Part shown: positions 15,313 through 56,206 of the stretch, in pieces
Position numbering within the stretch: position 1 is the stretch's first letter
How the letters are laid out: the number at the start of each line of letters is the position of its first letter
NCBI GenBank assembly: GCA_050916035.1
Contig: CP050876.1
Location: forward strand, 700,727 to 764,726
From: Vampirovibrio sp.
GTDB lineage: Bacteria; Cyanobacteriota; Vampirovibrionia; Vampirovibrionales; JAJTHC01
Length of the DNA stretch: 64,000 bases
Direction: 5' to 3'
Made by a program: the position numbers and the translations under genes
Notes under the pieces: model-generated
Databases searched by the model: none
Told to the model about the DNA's origin: nothing
Seen by the model: the letters and a program-made list of their open reading frames with translations, nothing else

Positions 15313-17776
15313 TTAGGAGCTCTTGTGGTGCTTACTTTTTCCTGTGACGTCTTGCCACCAATATCCTACGTTTCTAAACCAACTTCCCACTCCACCGCCT
15401 TCTTCACGAAACCCATAAAGACTCGCGTCTGTACTTAAATGGGGATATTCCACAGGCTTTCCAATGCTTTCTTTTGTATGGACCATGCGGGCATTGGTGA
15501 GCGATGAATCATCCTCTAATCTGATATTAGAGCCTGCACCGTCTTTCAGACGCATATTCTTCAGCATGGCGCCCTGTTCTAGAGTGACGTCTACTTTTTT
15601 TTCCGTTAATGGCGCCTTCAGATATTTGGGTATTATTCCCCATAATCCTAAGATTATCGGCCTGGATATTGACGCGAGGCTCTTTTGATGGAATCTTACC
15701 CTCCTTACGTCCTGAGATATTTAAGGATGACATTATTTCCGGATTCTTCATTGTAACGTTAGAGGCAGTAATATCACTGCCTCCTATTAGACCCACATTA
15801 TATAGTTCGATTCCCCCTTCCGTCTCAACCTTGGCTATAAGAGTAGAGTTCTGTATACGAGGGTTTCTCGTACTACCTGTTTCGATATTTACGTTGCCGT
15901 ATGTACTATTGTCTACAGTGACCTGCTGAAACGGATCGGATTTAATGGGCTTACCATTGGGGGCTATTCTTTTTTCGGGATTGGCTTTAATGTCTAAAGA
16001 AGAGCCTTTGTTTAATCCGTTTACCTTAACCTTCTCATAGCCTTCTAGCTGGTTGGAAGAAGGCATGAGCGTATAATTGGTCTGTTCAGAAGCCCCAAGC
16101 GTAATGTTTGTATCCCTGTCGGAATGGTTTCGAAGGACAGTTGTGTCGTTAAAGTTACCATTCACTATAACGTCCTCGGTGGTATTATCGTTGATGTTAA
16201 CCTTTTGTGGAAATTCCTGAGTGCCGTTATTTTGCGTCACTTGTACCTTAGGGAGCTTGTTTCCTTCAATCGTGATTGTATTATCTGTCTTTAGAAGATT
16301 ATTGTGATTAGAAGACAGGTCTGAAACATAAATACCATCATCGTTTCGGTACGTCCCATAAACTGTACTATTGGTGATGGAAACGCCGTCATTTATTCCC
16401 CCTGTGATCGCCACTCGATCCGTTTTGACATGATCCAGATCAACATGCACAGTTGGTACCTTAGAAGTTGCTACTCCTCCTCCGCGCATAGTGTGCGTGC
16501 CTGAATTGTCAACGCGGACCTCTCCTATATTTAAAAGTTTTGCGGGCACCTCTTTTCCGCCTATATTTGTGGCCGGCTTTCCCTTCGCCTCGAGCCATAG
16601 GTTCGAGTCAATACTCGTCACATCGCCTAGGGTATCTTTAGCGTTAATCTGTAGCGTGGAGTCAAGCTTACCTGTAATATCCCCTAATGCTCCTTTAGCC
16701 TTTAAGGTTGCCCCGTTAGTAGCTAGTATTTCTTTAACCGCACGGCTATAGTTCCTGTCAAAGTTGTTCGACGGAAAAGCTGTTACGTCAACCTTCGCTC
16801 CCAAGGAGGCATTAACGAATTGTATCGCGTTATCACCTTCTGCCTGAATCGTAGTATTTAGAGGGATTTTTTCCGCCTCTTTAGCAATGCCCGTCCCCAT
16901 AGAAGAAACCGTGCCAATGGCATCGGGATATAATGCTGTAACAGTATTTTCAGCGTTTGCTATAACCTTCTCAACCATGGGCTTGCCTGTATTATTGCCC
17001 CAAGCATTCACGGTGAGATGAGCATTTCTACCAAGGTCCACGGTTTCGACCTTTGATTTTGGCGCAATGCTGAGGCTTTCTTGTGCCAAGGTCACGGAGG
17101 CATTGTTTACCTTTAAATGCTCAATCTGAGTGTTGTCTATTTGTAGCAAGGGCTTTTTTTCAATGCCAGGATTAGAAATACTAACATTTTTTAATTCACT
17201 ACCACTCATGAGGGCTCCCCCCGTCCCTGGCTCATGTATTAGAGTGTCAAACATATGATAAGAAACACCCTCTGTGGGGGCTTTGCCTTCTGCATAGCGA
17301 CTCACGTCCTCTAGTGTAAGCGTGGCGTCTGGTTTTGTATGTACGGCATCAATTATTTGAAGCCCTTGTGGTGTCTTTTTTATTCTTGCATCATCTAAAA
17401 TGACGTTTTTCAATTTAATGGTCTGATCAGGAGCAAAGTCTTGTCCGCTTAAGTCCATACCACTTAAATCGAGACGAGCCTTTAACGGTTCTTTGCTATT
17501 CGTGAATTCTGTAAGCATATATCTTGTGCGAAGCTCAGGAGGCAGGCGGAGGATCTGATCTGGGGTCATGGCTCCACTCTTTAGAATGGATTCCCCTGTC
17601 TCAGGGTTAGTCGTCGCTTCATTGATGTGTTTAATCACGCCATTGAGGTCTGGATCCCATTTGGATAAATCTCCCCCTAGGCGCACCTCCTTTAACAAAT
17701 CCCCTGCGTGCCGACTGGCTTGGGTCACGGCGGGATTTACTGCTTCTTTAGTCAAATTGGCGGTGGCTTCCGCCAT
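15313..17776 (-). pseudogene. Large beta-helix / pentapeptide-like repeat protein interrupted by a +1 frameshift in an A8 tract (ORFs 15527-17776 and 15313-15567)
   Basis: The 749-aa ORF ends in an unrelated basic tail (GKKSRRHSRTGRHAEEYASERRCRL*) immediately after A8. Deleting one A reads ...AINGKK VDVTLEQGAMLKNMRLKDGAGSNIRLEDDSSLTNARMVH..., continuing into the 84-aa ORF. Repeat-like N/G/T-rich sequence throughout (LDLSGMDLSGQDF; NVSISNPGIEKK; VNNASVTLAQ). No signal peptide. Confidence 0.7.
15595..15602 (-). other. A8 homopolymer (T8 on the plus strand) at the frameshift point
   Basis: The plus strand reads ctacTTTTTTTTcc. On the minus strand gga aaa aaa a|gta gac; the extra A causes the frame change. 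Confidence 0.9.
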
Positions 17777-18074
17777 TATTTCTTCTGTTCTCTTTTTTAC
17801 AAAATTTCCTGCAAAAACTCGATTTGTTTTAAATTGAAACTCATCATTTTCTTCCTTTTTTTGGGTTTAATGGGTCGACGTGCTTGTGTGGTCTATAGCG
17901 ATGTGACGACACACACGCCACATTGATGCTATGAGGGCATAAAACCTCAAACAAAGCATAAGGGTGCGAAAGGGGGGGTGCTTTAATAAAATTGTTACAT
18001 ATTGAAATATTCATCGTGTTTTTAAGGCTTTACAGTTCGCTGTGTTCCTCGTACACTGAAGCGTAATAAGATAA

Positions 18075-18145
18075 GGCGACATGGCCAAGTGGTAAGGCAG
18101 GGGTCTGCAAAATCCTTATCCCCAGTTCGAATCTGGGTGTCGCCT
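18075..18145 (+). tRNA. tRNA-Cys (anticodon GCA)
   Basis: GGCGACA/TGTCGCC acceptor stem. Anticodon loop CTGCAAA. T-arm CCCAG-TTCGAAT-CTGGG. Discriminator U73. Hand-folded cloverleaf of 71 nt. Confidence 0.9.
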
Positions 18146-18178
18146 TTTTTTTGCCTTTTTTAAATAGGCTTTCTACTA

Positions 18179-18292
18179 ATCATACGAAAAGGCGAAGTTC
18201 TAGAGTTCTCACTTTCGTTTTGGGCTGGCGACGTCAGAGACCTTTTCGCGTAAAAAGGTCTCCAATACCTCGCATTTTTGCGTGGACGTCTC
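18179..18292 (-). repeat. Modular hairpin repeat, minimal copy E (module 1 start fused directly to the terminal hairpin plus tail)
   Basis: Reverse complement: gagacgtccacgcaaaaatgcgaggtaTTGGAGACCTTTTtacgcgAAAAGGTCTCTGACGtcgccagcccaaaacgaaagtgagaactctagaacttcgccttttcgtatgat. Aligns by eye to both ends of copies A and B. Confidence 0.8.
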
Positions 18293-18428
18293 TTGGTGTA
18301 ACGGGTTAAAGCGCTCACATTTTATCTAAAAAGCACTATAATACCGCCCTTTGCGGAGGAAACCTATAATCCAATCTATTTTTGTGCTAAAATTTTTTAC
18401 TAGAATCTACAATTGAAAAGGGTTTAGA

Positions 18429-20496: not shown

Positions 20497-21981
20497 TTAT
20501 ACTTCCGAAGCATCCAGTATGACAGGGACGGGTGCTTCAATGAGCGCGTCCACAGGAGGGACCACTTTCTTAGGGCGCCCTCTCTTTTTAGGGGCTTCTA
20601 CAGGAACTGTCTCTTCCGTATTGACTACTTCAAGCGTCTCTTCAACAAGCACAGGTGTTGCTATGGCTTGCGGAAGATTCGTTAAAATGACAGGTTCAAC
20701 GGTGGATTCAACCGAGTTTGGTGTTGCTTTGGCCGTCGTTTTTTCTGCCAGTGCCTTGGCTTCTGCGGCGGCTAAATCATTGGCTTCTTGAGCCGCTTTG
20801 ACCAAGTCTTCATCGGCTAACATCCGTTGACGGGCGGCTTCAATTTCGACTTTCATCGCCTCAGGTAAATCAGGACGCCCCTCATTCCACTGGGGCAAGT
20901 TACGAGACTTACGAATCAGCTTGATGGCCACATGCACTCGCCATTCATCAATGCGTAGTTGTTTGGCCACAATTTTATGAATCCCAATGGGAGGGGTGGG
21001 CAAATAGGGTTCGTACAACATTTGAATGGCTTGTAATTGATCCGAAGACACGGCCAAGGGGCGCTTGGGTAAATCCACCTTCGGCAAATTCATTTTTTGG
21101 CGAATTAAATTCATACCAAAAAATACTTTTAAGGGGTCTAGCTGTAATTCTTCACCCACAACGGTATGGAAATCAGGGTTGGGTAAAGGCAAGCACGTTC
21201 TGTAACGTTTTTCAATTTCAGCAAGTAATTCAGGTTCGACAAACATACGACGCTGCGGCGGACGTCCCCCGCCTCCACGTGGATTGAACCCGCTTCCCGG
21301 TGGGCGACCTTGATAAGGACGGCCTTGGTTTTGGTATCCACCACGATTTTGGTATCCACCACCACCAGCGCCTTGGCCTTGGTATCCGCCACCGCCAGTG
21401 CCTTGGCCTTGGTATCCACCACGATTTTGGTATCCACCCCCGCCAGCGCCTTGGCCTTGGTATCCACCACGATTTTGGTATCCACCACCACCAGCGCCTT
21501 GGCCTTGGTATCCACCACGATTTTGGTATCCACCACCACCAGCGCCTTGGCCTTGGTATCCACCACGATTTTGGTATCCGCCACCACCAGCGCCTTGGCC
21601 TTGGTATCCACCACGATTTTGGTATCCGCCACCACCAGCGCCTTGGCCTTGGTATCCGCCTTGATTTTGGTATCCACCACCGCCACCACCTTGGTTTTGG
21701 TATCCACCGCGGTTTTGGTATCCGCCACCACCACCTTGGCTTTGGTATCCGCCGCGGTTTTGGTAATTGTTTTGTCTCGGTGCATAGTTGGAACGTTGAT
21801 CTCCCCCTCCCTCAGGGGCTGAACCGTAGCCACCTTCAGGCTGAAATCCATTTTGCATGGGGGCATTACTTAGCGGTTCTTCTGGCGCACGTGTTTTATA
21901 TAGGCAATCAGGACAAATAATACGTTTGGGGTTCTTGGTTTCAAAGGTAATACCACACTTGGAACAATTGTTTTCGTACAT
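20497..21981 (-). CDS. Zinc-ribbon / RGG-GGYQ low-complexity / duplicated helical domain / AT-hook protein (function unknown, probable nucleic-acid binder)
   Basis: N-terminus CSKCGITFETKNPKRIICPDC (CxxC-x15-CxxC). Residues ~45-235 are GGYQNRGGYQGQGAGGGG repeats. Two ~55-aa related segments (LLAEIEKRYRTCLPLPNPDFHTVVGEELQLDPLKVFFGMNLIRQK and LQAIQMLYEPYLPTPPIGIHKIVAKQLRIDEWRVHVAIKLIRKS). KKRGRPKK encoded at 20566-20589. Confidence 0.75.
   Translation of the reverse strand: MYENNCSKCGITFETKNPKRIICPDCLYKTRAPEEPLSNAPMQNGFQPEGGYGSAPEGGGDQRSNYAPRQNNYQNRGGYQSQGGGGGYQNRGGYQNQGGGGGGYQNQGGYQGQGAGGGGYQNRGGYQGQGAGGGGYQNRGGYQGQGAGGGGYQNRGGYQGQGAGGGGYQNRGGYQGQGAGGGGYQNRGGYQGQGTGGGGYQGQGAGGGGYQNRGGYQNQGRPYQGRPPGSGFNPRGGGGRPPQRRMFVEPELLAEIEKRYRTCLPLPNPDFHTVVGEELQLDPLKVFFGMNLIRQKMNLPKVDLPKRPLAVSSDQLQAIQMLYEPYLPTPPIGIHKIVAKQLRIDEWRVHVAIKLIRKSRNLPQWNEGRPDLPEAMKVEIEAARQRMLADEDLVKAAQEANDLAAAEAKALAEKTTAKATPNSVESTVEPVILTNLPQAIATPVLVEETLEVVNTEETVPVEAPKKRGRPKKVVPPVDALIEAPVPVILDASEV
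21331..21770 (-). repeat. 48-bp (16-codon) tandem repeat array inside the coding sequence, with degenerate flanking units
   Basis: The motif ccacgatttt recurs at 21419, 21467, 21515, 21563 and 21611, an exact 48-bp period. Unit: ttggtatccaccacgattttggtatccaccaccaccagcgccttggcc. Looser copies lie on both sides. Confidence 0.9.
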
Positions 21982-27127: not shown

Positions 27128-27207
27128 AGCCCCTCAAAAAGGAAGGCCAAATCATAATATACTCATACTTTCAGATAGAAAAAAGAGATTTATCCCCTCT
27201 TCGTCAA

Positions 27208-27458
27208 CAGACGTCAACGCAAAAATGCGAGGCTTCCGAGACATTTTGCGGACGTCGTGCACAGGAATGATGCGAGGAGGTGGGGATTGAGGGGGGATTT
27301 TCAAGGGGGGACGAAGGGGAGGAGAAACGCAATGCGTCCTACCCCGTCCCCCCTTGAACGGATTTAGAGGTGTTGGAGACCTTTTTCCGTGAAAAGGTCT
27401 CTGACGGCACCAGCTTGAAACGGAGCGAGGAATCTATGGCTTAGCCTTCGCCGATTAT
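27208..27458 (+). repeat. Modular hairpin repeat, copy A (reference: modules 1-4)
   Basis: cagacgtcaacgcaaaaatgcgagg...cattttgcggacgtc (hairpin 1). GGGGGGACGaaggggaggagaaacgcaatgcgtcctaccCCGTCCCCCC (hairpin 2, 27305-27353). ttGGAGACCTTTTtccgtgAAAAGGTCTCtgacg (hairpin 3, 27375-27401). About 55-nt tail. The core is identical to copies B and C. Confidence 0.85.
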
Positions 27459-27499
27459 AGTTAAGCCGTGTGTAGATTTTTGACCAGAAGCCTTTGTGC

Positions 27500-27949
27500 T
27501 TAGGGTTCTGTTTTTTCTGACGCATCTTGCTTTAATCGTTGAAACTTATCAAATGGTTCTTCTTCTATTGGATCAAATTCTTTTTCGGTTAAGTTTAAGG
27601 CAGACTCTACCTGTTTTAAATTGGTTAATAAAGAATGGTCTTTTCTTTCAAAAGTATCTTTTAACTTTTGAGAATCGCCAGATTTTGGTTCTTTCTGTGT
27701 CACTGTTACTTGAGTATCACTAATGATCACTTGAGCTTTCTCGGAAAGAGAATGAATTTTTTCTACAAGGTTAAGCAAATCCTGTGCTTCTTGTGCAGGA
27801 TGTAGAACCAGTCGCAAAAAAAATCTTTTTTCCTGTGATGCTAAACTGCTTATTTCGTTATGGATATGTTCGAAAGACTTAAGAGTGATATAGCCGTTTC
27901 TTTGTTTGGTTTGGGTTTGGGAGTGTGAAACGCGTTGAATAGGGAGCAT
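27500..27949 (-). CDS. Hypothetical protein (149 aa, helical/charged, visibly AT-rich gene)
   Basis: Long ORF with no recognisable motifs. Lies between repeat copies A and D. Confidence 0.5.
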   Translation of the reverse strand: MLPIQRVSHSQTQTKQRNGYITLKSFEHIHNEISSLASQEKRFFLRLVLHPAQEAQDLLNLVEKIHSLSEKAQVIISDTQVTVTQKEPKSGDSQKLKDTFERKDHSLLTNLKQVESALNLTEKEFDPIEEEPFDKFQRLKQDASEKTEP

Positions 27950-28053
27950 GGGTGAACCTTTTCTTATGGTCGTTATGGCTAGGTTGAGATATAAAGTGAG
28001 AGTAGCTTTATATTAAATAGTATAAAAAAAATGGATTTGTAAAGCCTATTTGT

Positions 28054-28200
28054 GTCAAGGCTAACGAAAATGTTACAAAGTATCGGGGGAGTGGGCAATG
28101 CCGTCCTCCCTTTCCCCCTCCTTGAACGGATTTAGAGGGGTGGAGACCTTTTTCCGCGAAAAGGTCTCTGACGAGCGACCAGCCAAAAACGAAAGCCAGC
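28054..28200 (+). repeat. Modular hairpin repeat, diverged and shortened copy D
   Basis: gtcaaggctaacgaaaatg...caatgccgtcctccctttccccctccttgaacggatttagaggggtGGAGACCTTTTtccgcgAAAAGGTCTCtgacgagcgaccagccaaaaacgaaagcc. Terminal hairpin intact; hairpin 2 degenerate. Confidence 0.7.
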
Positions 28201-28263
28201 CATCCAAAAAACAAGAATTCAAAAAAAAGAGCCTCTTCAAGGATAAAAACACTCTATGTGACC

Positions 28264-29430
28264 TTAAACGTTCTGTGCGGTTGAAGGTGCTTGTTGTTCT
28301 TTATCGGCTTGGTATCGATTCGCGAGCTGACCACAGGCGGCATCAATATCGACTCCGCGTTCTAAACGAACCGTGACTTTTTTATGGTATCGCTCCAGTA
28401 AAATAGTCATAAAGGTTTTAATCGCTGCATTGGAAGAACGCCTGTAGTCCACGGCACGAGGCAAGTCTTTCGCCATGGGATTATAAGGAATCAGGTTGAT
28501 ATTACATTTTAAATGTTTGATTAATTGTCCGAGTTGATGGGCATGTTCAGGTTGGTCGTTGATGCCGTCCATCATAATATATTCCATGGTGAGGCGTCGA
28601 TGAGTGGAGGCCAAATAGCGCTCTAAGGCGGGGATGAGTGTTTCTAAAGGCCAGCGACGGTTAATGGGCATAATTTGAGAACGTATCTCGTTGTTGGGCG
28701 CATGCAGCGACAAGGCCAAGGTGATGGGCATTTCTTCCGTGGCCAATTGATCAATGTGGTCTACCAATCCAGACGTCGACACGGTAATCCGTCGCATGCC
28801 CACTTCGCAGGATTCATTTAAAATCCGAAGAGACTTCACGGTGTTTTCGTAATTATGGAGGGGTTCCCCTTGTCCCATGTAAACGACGTTGCGGACTTCT
28901 TTACCGCTGTCGGCTTGTACTTGCGTGTATTGCTCTACAATTTCACTGGCGGAAAGGTGTCGTTTTAATCCGATTTTACCTGTCGCGCAAAAGGAACAGT
29001 TAATCGCACAGCCCACTTGGGTGGACACACATAAGGCGTAGCTGCCTCGCTCTTCAAAATACATTAAGACGGATTCAATCACGTTACCGTCCGCACATTG
29101 AAACAGGTACTTCACGGTGCCGTCTTGAGAAAGCTGTTTGCTTGCAATACGAAGCGTGCCGATTTGAAAATGTTCACGGAGTTCTTGCTGAAAGGCTTTG
29201 GAAAGATTCCGCATGGCGGAAAAGTCCTGAACGCCTTTGACGTATAGCCAATGGTGAAGCTGTTCGGCACGAAAGCGAGGGTGCCCTAAGGCGGTGAAGA
29301 GTTCCAGTAGCTCGGCTTGTGTTTTACCAATTAGGACGGGTAAGGCATGGGCGGGAAGGGGGGGTAAGGTGACCTGCGTCATCCGGGTGTAGGACGCCGT
29401 TTCTGAAGCGTTAGGAGGGGAGATAGGCAT
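28264..29430 (-). CDS. rlmN: 23S rRNA/tRNA A2503 C2-methyltransferase RlmN (radical SAM)
   Basis: CVSTQVGCAINCSFCATG (CxxxCxxC), MGQGEPLHN, TVSTSG, and the ending ERGVDIDAACGQL. Confidence 0.9.
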   Translation of the reverse strand: MPISPPNASETASYTRMTQVTLPPLPAHALPVLIGKTQAELLELFTALGHPRFRAEQLHHWLYVKGVQDFSAMRNLSKAFQQELREHFQIGTLRIASKQLSQDGTVKYLFQCADGNVIESVLMYFEERGSYALCVSTQVGCAINCSFCATGKIGLKRHLSASEIVEQYTQVQADSGKEVRNVVYMGQGEPLHNYENTVKSLRILNESCEVGMRRITVSTSGLVDHIDQLATEEMPITLALSLHAPNNEIRSQIMPINRRWPLETLIPALERYLASTHRRLTMEYIMMDGINDQPEHAHQLGQLIKHLKCNINLIPYNPMAKDLPRAVDYRRSSNAAIKTFMTILLERYHKKVTVRLERGVDIDAACGQLANRYQADKEQQAPSTAQNV

Positions 29431-42388: not shown

Positions 42389-42437
42389 GGGAAAAAATAA
42401 TAGGCTCTCTCACCAAACGGCAGCCGTATTGTCAAGG

Positions 42438-42796
42438 CAGACGTCAACGCAAAAATGCGAGGCTTCCGAGACATTTTGCGGACGTCGTGTAAAGCAATGA
42501 TGCGAGGAGGTGGGGACAAAAACTTCTTATTCACGAAGTGAATCTACTCCTTTAGGAAGGAGAGGTTGGGAGAGGAAACCAACGGTTTTCTTTCCCAAGA
42601 GAAAAAGTCAAAGCTTTTTCGACTCTAGGGGGGATTTTCAAGGGGGGACGAAGGGGAGGAGAAACGCAATGCGTCCTACCCCGTCCCCCCTTGAACGGAT
42701 TTAGAGGTGTTGGAGACCTTTTTCCGAGAAAAGGTCTCTGACGGAACAAGCTCAAAACTAAAACGAGAACTCTAGGGCTTAGTCTTCCCGCATGAT
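42438..42796 (+). repeat. Modular hairpin repeat, copy B (carries an extra ~111-bp module at 42517-42627)
   Basis: Same module 1, hairpin 2, hairpin 3 (loop tccgag) and tail as copy A, with extra sequence between ...ggtgggga and ggggggatttt. Confidence 0.85.
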
Positions 42797-42808
42797 GATG
42801 AGGAGGCA

Positions 42809-42850
42809 TAAAAAAAGAGGACCCCGTATAGACGGAACGTCCTCTTTTTT
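42809..42850. terminator. Bidirectional intrinsic terminator downstream of rpsT
   Basis: aaaaaaAGAGGACcccgtatagacggaacGTCCTCTttttt. Stem flanked by an A-run and a T-run. Confidence 0.7.
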
Positions 42851-51947: not shown

Positions 51948-51992
51948 AAAGCTTGTCTCCTCTTGTAAAGGCTGGCAAAATAGCTTCCCTTT

Positions 51993-52017
51993 AGGGAGGG
52001 CTCCTTCCCTTTTTTTC
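51993..52017 (+). terminator. Intrinsic terminator after the 135-aa gene
   Basis: AGGGAgggctcctTCCCTttttttt. Short GC stem plus T7. Confidence 0.55.
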
Positions 52018-52228
52018 AAGCTGGTCGACGTCAGAGACCTTTTCGTGGAAAAAGGTCTCCAACACCTCTAAATCCGTTCAAGGGGGGACGGGGTAGGACG
52101 CATTGCGTTTCTCCTCCCCTTCGTCCCCCCTTGAAAATCCCCCCTGAATCCCCACCTCCTCGCATCATTTACGGCCACGACGTCCGCAAAATGTCTCGGA
52201 CGCCTCGCATTTAGTGCTTGGACGTCTG
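52014..52228 (-). repeat. Modular hairpin repeat, copy C (inverted orientation, truncated tail)
   Basis: The reverse complement gives cagacgtccaagcactaaatgcgagg..., then a core identical to A and B, then hairpin 3 with loop tccacg, then ctgacgtcgaccagcttgaaa. Confidence 0.85.
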
Positions 52229-52352
52229 CTCTAAAATTACCTTTAAAATAATTTTCGCCGTGTGGGGAGGAAACGTTTAATGCTTTAGGTAGTGTCGACA
52301 TATAAATAATGATATAATAAATCCAAGATCTAGTTGTTTTGAGGGATTTATT

Positions 52353-53113
52353 ATGAACGATTATATTCAATACGAGTTGTCTAAAGCCCAATGGAATCAG
52401 ATAAAAGAGGCTCTACCTGGTCAGTCGCATCATAGAGGACGCACTGCCGAAAACAACCGTCTTTTTGTAGAAGCGGTATTATGGATGGGGCGAAACGGGG
52501 GAAGATGGAGGTCGCTTCCCTATTATTACGGCAAGTGGAGCAGTGTTCACAAGCGCTTCATTCGTTGGGCGAAACAAGGCATTTGGCAAATGATTTTCAA
52601 CACCCTTGCCACATCGGCAGATACCGAATGGCTTATGATTGATTCGACGATTATTCGCGCCCACCAGTGTTCAGCAGGGGCAAAAAAAGTGCCGGAAAAC
52701 AAGCGTTAGGACGATCGTCAGGGGGCTATACGAGCAAGCTTCACGCCGTTTGTGACAGCCACGGCAACCCCGTTCGCTTTATCGTCACCGCAGGGCAGGT
52801 TTCCGACTCAACCCAAGCCATCCCTTTGTTAAAAGGGCTTGAAGCCACGGCGGTTTTGGCGGACAAGGGCTATGTTTCAGAACAAATATTTGAGGCGATT
52901 CACCTCATGGGGGCTGAAGTGGTCATCCCTAATAAAAGCAATGCGGTGGCTCCTCGTCAAGTCGATTACTTCCTTTACAAGGCTCGCCACTTGGTAGAAA
53001 ACTTGTTTAAAGACCTTAAAAACTTCAGGCGAATGGCAACCCGTTACGATAAATTAGATGTGGCTTATTTGTCTTTTGTTCATCTTGCTTCTATTTGTTT
53101 ATGGCTTAAGTAA
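52353..53113 (+). CDS. IS5-family DDE transposase, orfA-orfB joined by a programmed -1 frameshift
   Basis: orfA (52353-52709): LSKAQWNQIKEALPG...GRTAENNRLFVEAVLWMGRNGGRWRSLP...KRFIRWAKQGIW...IDSTIIRAHQ. orfB (52667-53113): LADKGY...ENLFKDLKNFRRMATRYDK. The frames differ by -1 across an A7 run. Confidence 0.85.
52682..52688 (+). promoter_or_regulatory. Slippery A AAA AAA heptamer for -1 ribosomal frameshifting in the transposase
   Basis: gcA AAA AAA gtg in the orfA frame; a -1 slip reads agt gcc gga aaa caa, which is the orfB sequence SAGKQ. Confidence 0.7.
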
Positions 53114-53143
53114 ATGTCGACACTACCTAATCGTCCGCATCTA

Positions 53144-53281
53144 ATACCATTTAAACGATTGGAAAGCGTATAGATGTATTCTAGGAGCCTAGACTCGCAG
53201 AGGGGTGAAGTGTACATAAACGTACATAAACACCTCGAGAATCGTAGCGACAACGAAGACGTCAGACGCTATTTAATCGTT
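53144..53281 (+). repeat. Left arm of a ~138-bp mosaic inverted repeat
   Basis: Blocks ataccatttaaacga, tattctaggagcct (53177-53190), gtgtacataaacgtacataa, gtagcgacaacgaaga (53244-53259) and atttaatcgtt recur in the same order in the reverse complement of 55952-56090. Confidence 0.75.
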
Positions 53282-55951: not shown

Positions 55952-56090
55952 AAACGATTAAATGTCGTGTGGTCTCTTCGTTGTCGCTACAATTTTTTTG
56001 TGCAGTTATGTACGTCTGTGTACACGCTTTTACAAAAAAATAGAGGCTCCTAGAATAGCCTGACACCCTATTCACTCGTTTAAACGGTAT
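55952..56090 (-). repeat. Right arm of the ~138-bp mosaic inverted repeat
   Basis: aggctcctagaata (56044-56057), tcttcgttgtcgctac (55975-55990), gttatgtacgtctgtgtacac (56005-56025), aaacgattaaat (55952-55963), cgtttaaacggtat (56077-56090). These are reverse complements of the left-arm blocks. Confidence 0.75.
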
Positions 56091-56206
56091 GAGTTGGGGT
56101 AAAAGATCAAAAGAGTTTGACTTACCTTAATAAAACAATCAAAAAGATACTTATTGCCCAATTGTAATCTTTCGTTACGATAAGCGAAAGATAATCGTTC
56201 GTATGC

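Follow-up and report, generated by a model that had tools for sequence, protein, structure and literature searches.

A lineage-restricted family of mosaic, hairpin-rich intergenic repeats in Vampirovibrio sp. and a related Vampirovibrionales MAG

The stretch of Vampirovibrio sp. DNA analysed here (64,000 nucleotides, hereafter the window) is part of a genome of 2,037,776 bp and carries an interspersed repeat that lies between genes. The flanking genes are housekeeping genes, among them mnmE, rlmN, rpsT, a PD-(D/E)XK nuclease gene, tRNA-Cys and a TPR gene. One part of the repeat, the M3 core GGAGACCTTTT-N6-AAAAGGTCTC-TGACG, has five exact matches in the window and none in 100 dinucleotide-preserving shuffles; as the pattern GGAGACCTTTTNNNNNNAAAAGGTCTCTGACG it is found exactly at 18232-18263 (minus strand), 27375-27406 (plus), 28142-28173 (plus), 42712-42743 (plus) and 52029-52060 (minus). 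These matches agree in position and strand with the five copies listed in the initial annotation (called B, A, C, D and E in the order of their coordinates), each of which could be read directly. No sixth copy was found in the window, either by module-by-module BLAST or with nhmmer profiles. The three long copies, at 27208, 42438 and 52014, are 95-98% identical to one another over 117-184 nt according to a repeat finder. When boundaries are drawn from homology to full-length relatives and from an empty site for copy D, the window copies are 222-414 nt long and jointly make up ~2.3% of the window; thus the copies had been located correctly in the initial annotation, but their lengths had been underestimated.

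The modules of the repeat follow one fixed order on one strand in all copies: M0, M1, a linker, an optional insert, M2, and M3 with its tail. A full unit is a foldback of 300-415 nt. M1 is a hairpin framed by GACGTC, M2 is a long G/C-clamped purine/pyrimidine hairpin, and M3 is a perfect 10-bp stem followed by TGACG, which is a CGTC tag on the opposite strand. These three hairpins and the tail are the four parts that had been described originally, and all four are present; the description had left out M0 (an extra 5′ module, e.g., 42396-42437), a 110-nt insert with several hairpins of its own that is present in copy D and recurs in other genomes, the existence of three types of tail, and the sub-variants of M1 (short or long), the linker (a or b) and M2 (v1, v1b or v2). 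M3 and its ~55-nt tail are single or form head-to-tail arrays (n = 1 to at least 4) with a period of ~87 nt, as in loci L004, L009, L015 and L016; in one M3 unit of L004 the loop is inverted. Copies differ in which sub-variants of M1, linker and M2 they bring together: L041, for instance, joins a short M1 to linker b and M2-v2, and L017 joins a long M1 to linker a and M2-v1b. The family is thus mosaic.

The right ends of the copies are ragged, and ~25 nt past M3 is all that is common to every copy. Intact left ends read TA-GG(C/T)(C/T)TCCYC... and intact right ends ...GAGGAGGCC-TA, and the two can pair with each other; of 14 positions, 9-11 agree between the 5′ TAGG(C/T)(C/T)TCCYC and the 3′ ...GAGGAGGCCTA taken as its reverse complement. 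Most intact ends are flanked by TA, and both intact ends occur together in only two to three copies, copy D and the copy-B site (in the window and in L041). A second inverted-repeat system is present in L012 and L015, where one of the three tail types ends with the left half of M1, inverted, at the 3′ end of the element.

Copy B (18150..18371, minus strand) adjoins the 3′ end of tRNA-Cys (18074-18146); in it M0 and the left half of M1 are joined without a break to M3 at 18232-18263, which is followed by a T1 tail. Copy A (27168..27461, plus strand) lies between two convergent genes, mnmE and an orphan 149-aa gene; it has a short M0, M1 at 27209-27256, the linker at 27257-27289, M2 at 27290-27358, M3 at 27375-27406 and a truncated T1 tail at 27407-27461. 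Copy C (~28031-28284, plus strand) is without M1 and has a diverged M2 at ~28084-28126, M3 at 28142-28173 and a T2-type tail that extends into the final codons of rlmN. Upstream of M3 it is much diverged (72% identity, ungapped), and its 28040-28090 segment matches a segment downstream of a copy in L005. Copy D (42396..42809, plus strand) is the most complete, with M0 at 42396-42437, M1 at 42439-42486, a linker, the insert at 42517-42626, M2 at 42627-42695, M3 at 42712-42743 and a full T1 tail whose final letters, GAGGAGGCAT, end at 42809. Copy E (51959..52281, minus strand) has M0, M1 at 52227-52179, a linker, M2 at 52145-52077, M3 at 52060-52029 and a divergent tail; 12 nt separate the end of this tail from the stop codon of an orphan 135-aa gene. 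The genes that flank copy E are singletons, and the segment that holds copies A and C is strain-specific.

All copies are intergenic. At 24 sites the gene ends that face the element comprise 27 3′ ends and 15 5′ ends, in agreement with the original statement that the copies lie mostly at gene 3′ ends. In all five window copies the tail faces a gene 3′ end, but this is not a rule in the wider set, where the count is 14 versus 9. The orientation relative to neighbouring genes is not fixed, which speaks against a dedicated cis-regulatory role, whether 5′ or 3′. Neither an intrinsic terminator nor a sigma-70 promoter was found within the element beyond chance; copy D does not include the terminator at 42821-42838, which is there in the empty allele too. 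The orphan genes beside copies matched no family. No transposase or recombinase partner was found near the copies in the window and the other loci (~230 kb), nor was any Y1/HUH gene or IS630-like gene, and no multi-copy gene lies near the copies in the ~230 kb of loci. The only insertion sequence in the window, an IS5-family element, begins at 52285, just beyond the head of copy E. Its terminal repeats are unrelated to the repeat, and it was rejected as a parent for that reason.

When 185,579 genomes (one per species) were scanned, the M3 pattern was found outside the window's genome in a single related Vampirovibrionales MAG. This fragmented assembly from Lake Mendota has 23 M3 matches on 19 contigs, and many of its copies are near contig ends. 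The flanks of the MAG copies are unlike those in the window, which shows a truly dispersed family; no fewer than 24 unlinked intergenic sites are occupied, with unrelated flanks and no co-duplication of flanking sequence. The repeat is thus interspersed, as had been proposed, and not a local duplication. Plasmid and phage collections contained no relative of the repeat, and pattern scans of viral and metagenome sequences likewise gave none; they returned only a different, longer palindrome with the same hairpin core, which itself matches no Rfam family. Only two tRNAs passed in an Rfam scan of the window, and a permissive scan of copy D gave nothing but noise, with E at least 0.5 and scores that fell well short of the gathering scores. 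No description of repeats in the Vampirovibrionia lineage was found in the literature. The initial annotation had assigned the repeat to no named family, which holds for the Rfam, plasmid and phage comparisons; M3, however, resembles the CGTC-REP superfamily (discussed below), though it departs from that class in several features. The repeat thus represents a new family that is restricted to one lineage, mosaic, intergenic and rich in hairpins, and that belongs to an already known kind.

Several of the sites could be compared with contigs of close strains (94-97% identical to the window), which were recovered by means of the flanking proteins; the close-strain contigs belong to JGI samples 3300059473, 3300044971 and 3300042516 and to Logan SRR325839xx. 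Copy D is absent from eight of these contigs, whose flanks are 95-97% identical to the window and match it up to 42392 and again from 42810. Where the filled allele has 417 nt, the empty allele has 36 unrelated AT-rich bases. Copy D is the one filled/empty polymorphism seen between close strains. Since the empty allele contains 36 bases that are absent from the filled one, no target duplication can be read at this site, and in this comparison of a pair without an outgroup insertion and deletion both fit. At the copy-B site the strains have the full M1-linker-M2-M3 arrangement, and the window copy is 154 nt shorter; the missing 154 nt are the right half of M1, the linker and M2, so that the deletion runs from the hairpin-1 loop to the flank of hairpin 3, and it is bounded by GAGG microhomologies. 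L010 and L054 come from strains that are otherwise identical and are distinguished by an internal tandem duplication of 109 nt, which in L054 extends from the middle of M2 to 20 nt past M3 and has an AA microhomology at its join; the L010 site is filled in all strains. Window positions 27146-28281, which contain copy A, the orphan 149-aa gene and copy C, are absent from the strains. These two copies lie at a synteny breakpoint, synteny with the strains ending 18 nt past the mnmE stop codon and resuming in the last rlmN codons, and the strains have a solo half-M1 directly after rlmN. The element is also absent from the mnmE region of a relative at 70% identity.

Much of the "modular" variation was therefore made in place, by short-repeat deletion or duplication and by exchange between copies, and the breakpoints at these orthologous sites often lie inside modules. 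It had been thought that copies differ by the presence or absence of whole modules; modules do vary in presence, but at the copy-B site and in L054 the breakpoints are internal to them. The repeat is a real, dispersed family with a mosaic order and preserved pairing, which varies both by presence or absence and by remodelling in place.

The preservation of pairing is seen in a consensus fold of 14 distinct copies (RNAalifold), which has 60 pairs; almost none of these is broken, and seven are changed on both sides. Paired cells amount to 99.0%, as against 96.4 ± 0.4% in column shuffles (none of 500 comes up to the real alignment) and 42-61% when the partners are slid, and the covariation score is 0.147 as against 0.096 in shuffles (0 of 500). 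Taken by itself, the tally of pairs in which both partners have changed is unexceptional, being matched by 67 of 500 shuffles, and this is consistent with covariation that stems from only two to three subfamily lineages. The hairpins are preserved via compensatory changes. Palindrome-correcting template switching is an established mutational mechanism that can mimic compensatory change without selection.

Each strand folds 4-6 standard deviations better than composition-matched shuffles (z-scores of -4.1 for the forward strand and -5.5 for the reverse). The consensus energy is -67.7 kcal/mol for the forward strand versus -41.2 for the reverse, and the forward strand folds better in all 14 copies, but the shuffles show the same forward/reverse offset. 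Much of the energy difference is therefore compositional, and the raw energies were downgraded as proof of an RNA strand. In the union of predicted pairs there are 129 G·U cells versus 36 A·C cells, and in M2-v2 the pyrimidine 3′ arm varies between C and T at several positions while the G-rich 5′ arm is unchanged. The G·U excess weakly favours one strand; the M2-v2 pattern is the more specific signal and gives moderate evidence for a role of one strand, whether as RNA or as single-stranded DNA.

A number of other identities were considered and rejected. The open reading frames that recur all pass through the repeat itself, in more than one frame and on either strand, and are broken by 1-nt indels between copies, and the repeat is thus not protein-coding; one spurious frame of this sort runs through copy D at 42552-42809 on the minus strand. 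It is not a CRISPR-like array, as the entire ~87-nt unit repeats and variable spacers are absent, nor a remnant of a group II intron or retron, for which there is neither an Rfam match nor a reverse transcriptase nearby. A known RNA family was likewise rejected, as no Rfam family matched.

Several known repeat families share parts of this design. BOX elements of S. pneumoniae and S. suis consist of ordered modules with a variable tandem centre (boxA-boxB(n)-boxC); their end modules are partly complementary, they show no clear target duplication and have no proven mobilising enzyme, and related species carry alternative modules (PMC3049150). The present repeat is like BOX in its ordered end modules around a tandemly variable centre, its strain-to-strain variation in copy number and its extensive stem-loops; the analogy with BOX that had been drawn at the outset is borne out by the M3-tail arrays of one to at least four units with their ~87-nt period. 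It differs in being up to 414 nt long rather than ~100-300, in having more module types, and in a repeated unit of ~87 nt rather than the 45-nt boxB. The two occur in different phyla and no sequence relation is expected; the comparison is one of published design. The BIMEs of Enterobacteria are mosaics of palindromic units and conserved linkers at gene 3′ ends and are thought to act on read-through transcripts (summarised in PMC3049150); their palindromes are GTAG-type REPs in alternating orientation and are tied to RAYT transposases. Like BIMEs, the present elements have mosaic modules at gene 3′ ends with variants mixed between copies, but all of their modules point the same way, and the window and the loci showed no RAYT gene.

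It seems probable, on balance, that this is a lineage-specific, non-coding and non-autonomous mosaic repeat of the BOX/BIME/NIME kind, which was dispersed by an enzyme and then remodelled in place. Dispersal would be by a trans-acting enzyme encoded elsewhere in the genome, and its target might be either the short terminal inverted repeats or the CGTC-tagged M3 hairpin. Resident copies are remodelled rapidly by deletion and tandem duplication at 2-5-nt microhomologies, and further by amplification of M3 and its tail, inversion of the M3 loop and exchange of sub-variants between copies. Copies may persist because the AT-rich spacers at gene 3′ ends tolerate them, and read-through transcripts would carry very stable hairpins that could incidentally stabilise or block 3′ ends. 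The repeat is most likely selfish DNA; its mode of dispersal and any role at the RNA level we infer from these patterns. The ragged right ends count against this reading, being unlike those of a cut-and-paste element with defined ends. So do the failure to find a transposase or recombinase partner in the window and loci, the unclean filled/empty pair at copy D, a terminal inverted repeat of 12-14 nt that has both ends in just two to three copies, the largely compositional nature of the forward-strand energy advantage, and covariation that reflects few subfamily lineages.

An alternative with the enzyme specified is that the repeat is a REP-like single-stranded DNA element, in which an HUH-type (RAYT/IS200-like) or other hairpin-recognising enzyme cleaves beside the CGTC tag; such cleavage would create the head-to-tail M3 arrays and spread the unit, as proposed for REPs, BIMEs and NIMEs. 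Palindromes of the CGTC-REP superfamily carry CGTC (or TGTC/CCTC), unpaired, at one end and an unpaired 3-nt tail (consensus CCA) at the untagged end, and have a stem of 8-9 bp that almost always begins with two A·T pairs and a loop of 4-5 nt; they are mostly head-to-head dimers, head-to-tail arrangements being "negligible," and they include the neisserial dRS3/NIME arrays and Rickettsia RPE-4/6, with no known transposase (Di Nocera et al. 2013, PMC3733652). Neisseria units of this type bracket 50-150-nt repeat segments in mosaic arrays, and CGTC REPs have not been reported from Cyanobacteria or their relatives (PMC3733652). The reverse strand of M3 has the form of a CGTC-tagged palindrome, 5′-CGTC-A-GAGACCTTTT-loop-AAAAGGTCTC-CAA. 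The tag is invariant beside the stem (CGTC-A-GAGACC...) in 28 of 28 exact copies, and the tandem units of L004 and L009 have TGTC, a variant that is also seen among CGTC REPs (PMC3733652). On that strand it forms at most two of four pairs with the CAAC tail and is thus largely unpaired, as the class requires. The GACGTC frame of M1, moreover, supplies CGTC on both strands. The repeat is also like CGTC REPs in being extragenic, mostly downstream of genes and equipped with a C/A-rich 3′ tail. No repeat-flanked transposase was found in ~230 kb (the unrelated IS5 element beside copy E excepted), and all CGTC families are reported to be without a transposase next door (PMC3733652). Finally, HUH chemistry suits the arrays, the ragged ends and the absence of any clear target duplication better than DDE cut-and-paste does.

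The details of the palindrome, however, fit the class poorly. The GAGACCTTTT/AAAAGGTCTC stem is 10 bp (11 with a closing U·G) rather than 8-9 and begins with G·C and then A·T instead of two A·T pairs; the loop is 6 nt (TCCGYG and variants) and comes down to 4 nt only if the U·G pair is counted; and the untagged end is CAACACC, which yields CCA only with the last stem pair opened. M3 is single or head-to-tail rather than head-to-head, and it sits almost always within a far larger, fixed and ordered multi-module composite that is atypical of REPs. No Y1/HUH gene was seen in the window or loci, and the G·U bias of M2 points to the forward strand instead. Since M3 departs from CGTC REPs in stem, loop and dimer arrangement it is not filed as a member of that superfamily, and a REP-like mode of spread is considered unlikely.

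In Correia elements, RUP and the cyanobacterial Nezha the inverted repeats are well defined and 20 bp or longer, TA is cleanly duplicated, and the cognate insertion-sequence family has been identified. The present repeat could similarly be a classical MITE of an IS630/Tc1-mariner DDE transposase, with imperfect terminal inverted repeats of ~12 nt (GGYYTCCYCAYC) and insertion at TA, which is duplicated, in AT-rich runs beside terminators. Like the TA-targeting MITEs it is non-coding, highly base-paired, intergenic and strain-variable, with possible short terminal inverted repeats and TA flanks. Left ends of the form TA|GG(C/T)T... are seen at copy D, the copy-B site, L019, L018 and L013, and right ends of the form ...GAGGAGGCC|TA or near variants at copy D, the copy-B site, L002, L014 and L013; an A or T run beside a terminator hairpin regularly comes after the T1 end, a terminal stem closes the whole element in the predicted folds of copy D and the L041 copy, and the absence of copy D from eight strain contigs is the presence/absence polymorphism that a MITE should show. 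On the other hand, the TA may belong to the repeat itself, and the empty site does not have a cleanly restored single TA. With matches at 9-11 of 14 positions the inverted repeat is imperfect as well as short, and most copies are without one or both ends and yet have cores that are 95-100% identical. No IS630-like gene, matching insertion-sequence terminus or cognate insertion sequence was found in the window and loci. A classical MITE is thus quite improbable.

A third alternative is that the copies are functional structured RNAs, either independent small RNAs or cis-acting 3′-end elements, whose multiplicity reflects gene duplication or recruitment. Expression, with effects on neighbouring transcripts, is known for both BOX and REP elements (PMC3049150, PMC3733652). 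Here pairing is kept with compensatory changes, G·U cells outnumber A·C cells, the C/T differences of M2-v2 lie opposite G, and the consensus folds better on one strand. Several elements fill the entire spacer between convergent genes and so must be transcribed by read-through. Against this, the strand asymmetry in energy is mostly compositional, template switching at palindromes can produce the same compensation without selection, the orientation to neighbouring genes is inconsistent, and there is no conserved sigma-70-like promoter or intrinsic terminator inside the element. The ragged ends, the internal deletions and duplications and the presence/absence variation at 95% identity are unlike a conserved gene, and the repeat is missing from the mnmE region of the 70%-identity relative and from all other species representatives. 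Functional RNAs of this sort are very improbable as an explanation of the family. About equally doubtful is a more specific form of the single-stranded idea, in which the repeat is a CGTC-type palindrome composite, the first in Vampirovibrionia, a sister lineage of the cyanobacteria, that would be copied to new sites by a hairpin-recognising enzyme through a strand-specific single-stranded form (a structured RNA of >300 nt or single-stranded DNA).

Least probable of these is that the repeat is immobile, the remnant of a few ancient segmental duplications that was spread and homogenised by homologous recombination or gene conversion alone: this would suit the mosaic mixing of sub-variants, the copies at synteny breakpoints, the untidy copy-D junctions and the highly identical cores with differing flanks, but gene conversion homogenises copies and cannot seed new sites, at least 24 unlinked sites have unrelated flanks, and the whole element differs between close strains at the copy-D site.

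Mosaic repeats of this kind have consequences for the genomes that carry them. Such repeats break short-read assemblies, and they mark rearrangement points; the breakpoint at copies A and C also alters the last codons of rlmN. Their variation between strains is fast enough for use as typing markers, and through them the 3′ ends of housekeeping genes (mnmE, rlmN, rpsT and tRNA-Cys) come to have very stable hairpins. If the link to CGTC REPs were true, a compact and recently active family in a 2-Mb genome would be a good place to seek the mobiliser of CGTC REPs, and if the composite reading of the CGTC-type palindrome were true, the family would give a handle on the long-standing question of what mobilises these repeats.

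The element is subject to remodelling within its own modules. Two otherwise identical strain sequences, L054:4720-5149 and L010:1695-2015, are distinguished by a tandem duplication of 109 nt within the element, running from the middle of M2 (the long G/C-clamped hairpin) through M3 (the 10-bp-stem hairpin) plus 20 nt; this is either a very recent slippage event or, less likely, an artefact of assembly. In the tandem array of the related contig L004, the second M3 unit (L004:1030-1061) has its 6-nt loop reverse-complemented (CGCGGA versus TCCGCG) while its flanks retain their orientation, and this inverted loop is a hairpin flip-flop. The forward strand also carries four G-runs upstream of and within the v1 variant of M2 (GGGG-N5-GGGGGG-N8-GGGGGG-N5-GGGG, window 27275-27325, with equivalents in copies D and E), which match a G-quadruplex motif; in the M2-v2 subfamily this motif is not conserved. 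In viral and metagenome contigs of unrelated organisms (L046-L052), a perfect palindrome of greater length, tttagaggg...GGAGACCTTTT-loop-AAAAGGTCTCC...ccctctaaa, has the M3 stem and its TTTAGAGG 5′ flank in common with the element; it belongs to no Rfam family.

Copies A and C, together with an orphan 149-aa gene between them (27500-27949, minus strand), make up a strain-specific segment at window 27146-28281. Close strains align to the window only up to 27145 and then again from 28282 on, and the final codons of rlmN therefore vary with the lineage; in these strains a solo half of M1 (the GACGTC-framed hairpin) is located 7 nt past their own rlmN stop codon.

The head of copy E is directly adjoined, on its outside, by an 846 bp IS5-family insertion sequence (52285-53130) with 25-nt terminal inverted repeats and two overlapping ORFs, DUF4096 (52353-52709) and a DDE domain (52667-53113), which are presumably joined via a frameshift. 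The start of MAG contig L005 is 98% identical to the right end of this element, which is therefore multi-copy. Five nt past its end begins a second, unrelated inverted-repeat pair, whose members are each ∼147 nt long (53135-53281 and 55953-56099). The 2.7 kb between them, with orphan ORFs alongside a flagellar-rod-like gene and one for an Fe-S cluster (IscA-like) protein, may be capable of inversion or of moving as a unit.

Two further orphan genes in the window lie on the minus strand. The 494-aa ORF at 20497-21981, for which no Pfam family was found, includes about eight copies of a 48-nt (16-codon) tandem repeat with 92% identity (21379-21765), and alignments with strains L023 and L024 suggest a repeat number different from that of the window. 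The large orphan gene at 15527-17776, upstream of tRNA-Cys, encodes a protein only ∼30% identical to the 873-aa product encoded at the equivalent position in another strain (L041:1-2280), where the neighbouring DNA is 84-94% identical to the window; the gene may be hypervariable or may have been replaced.
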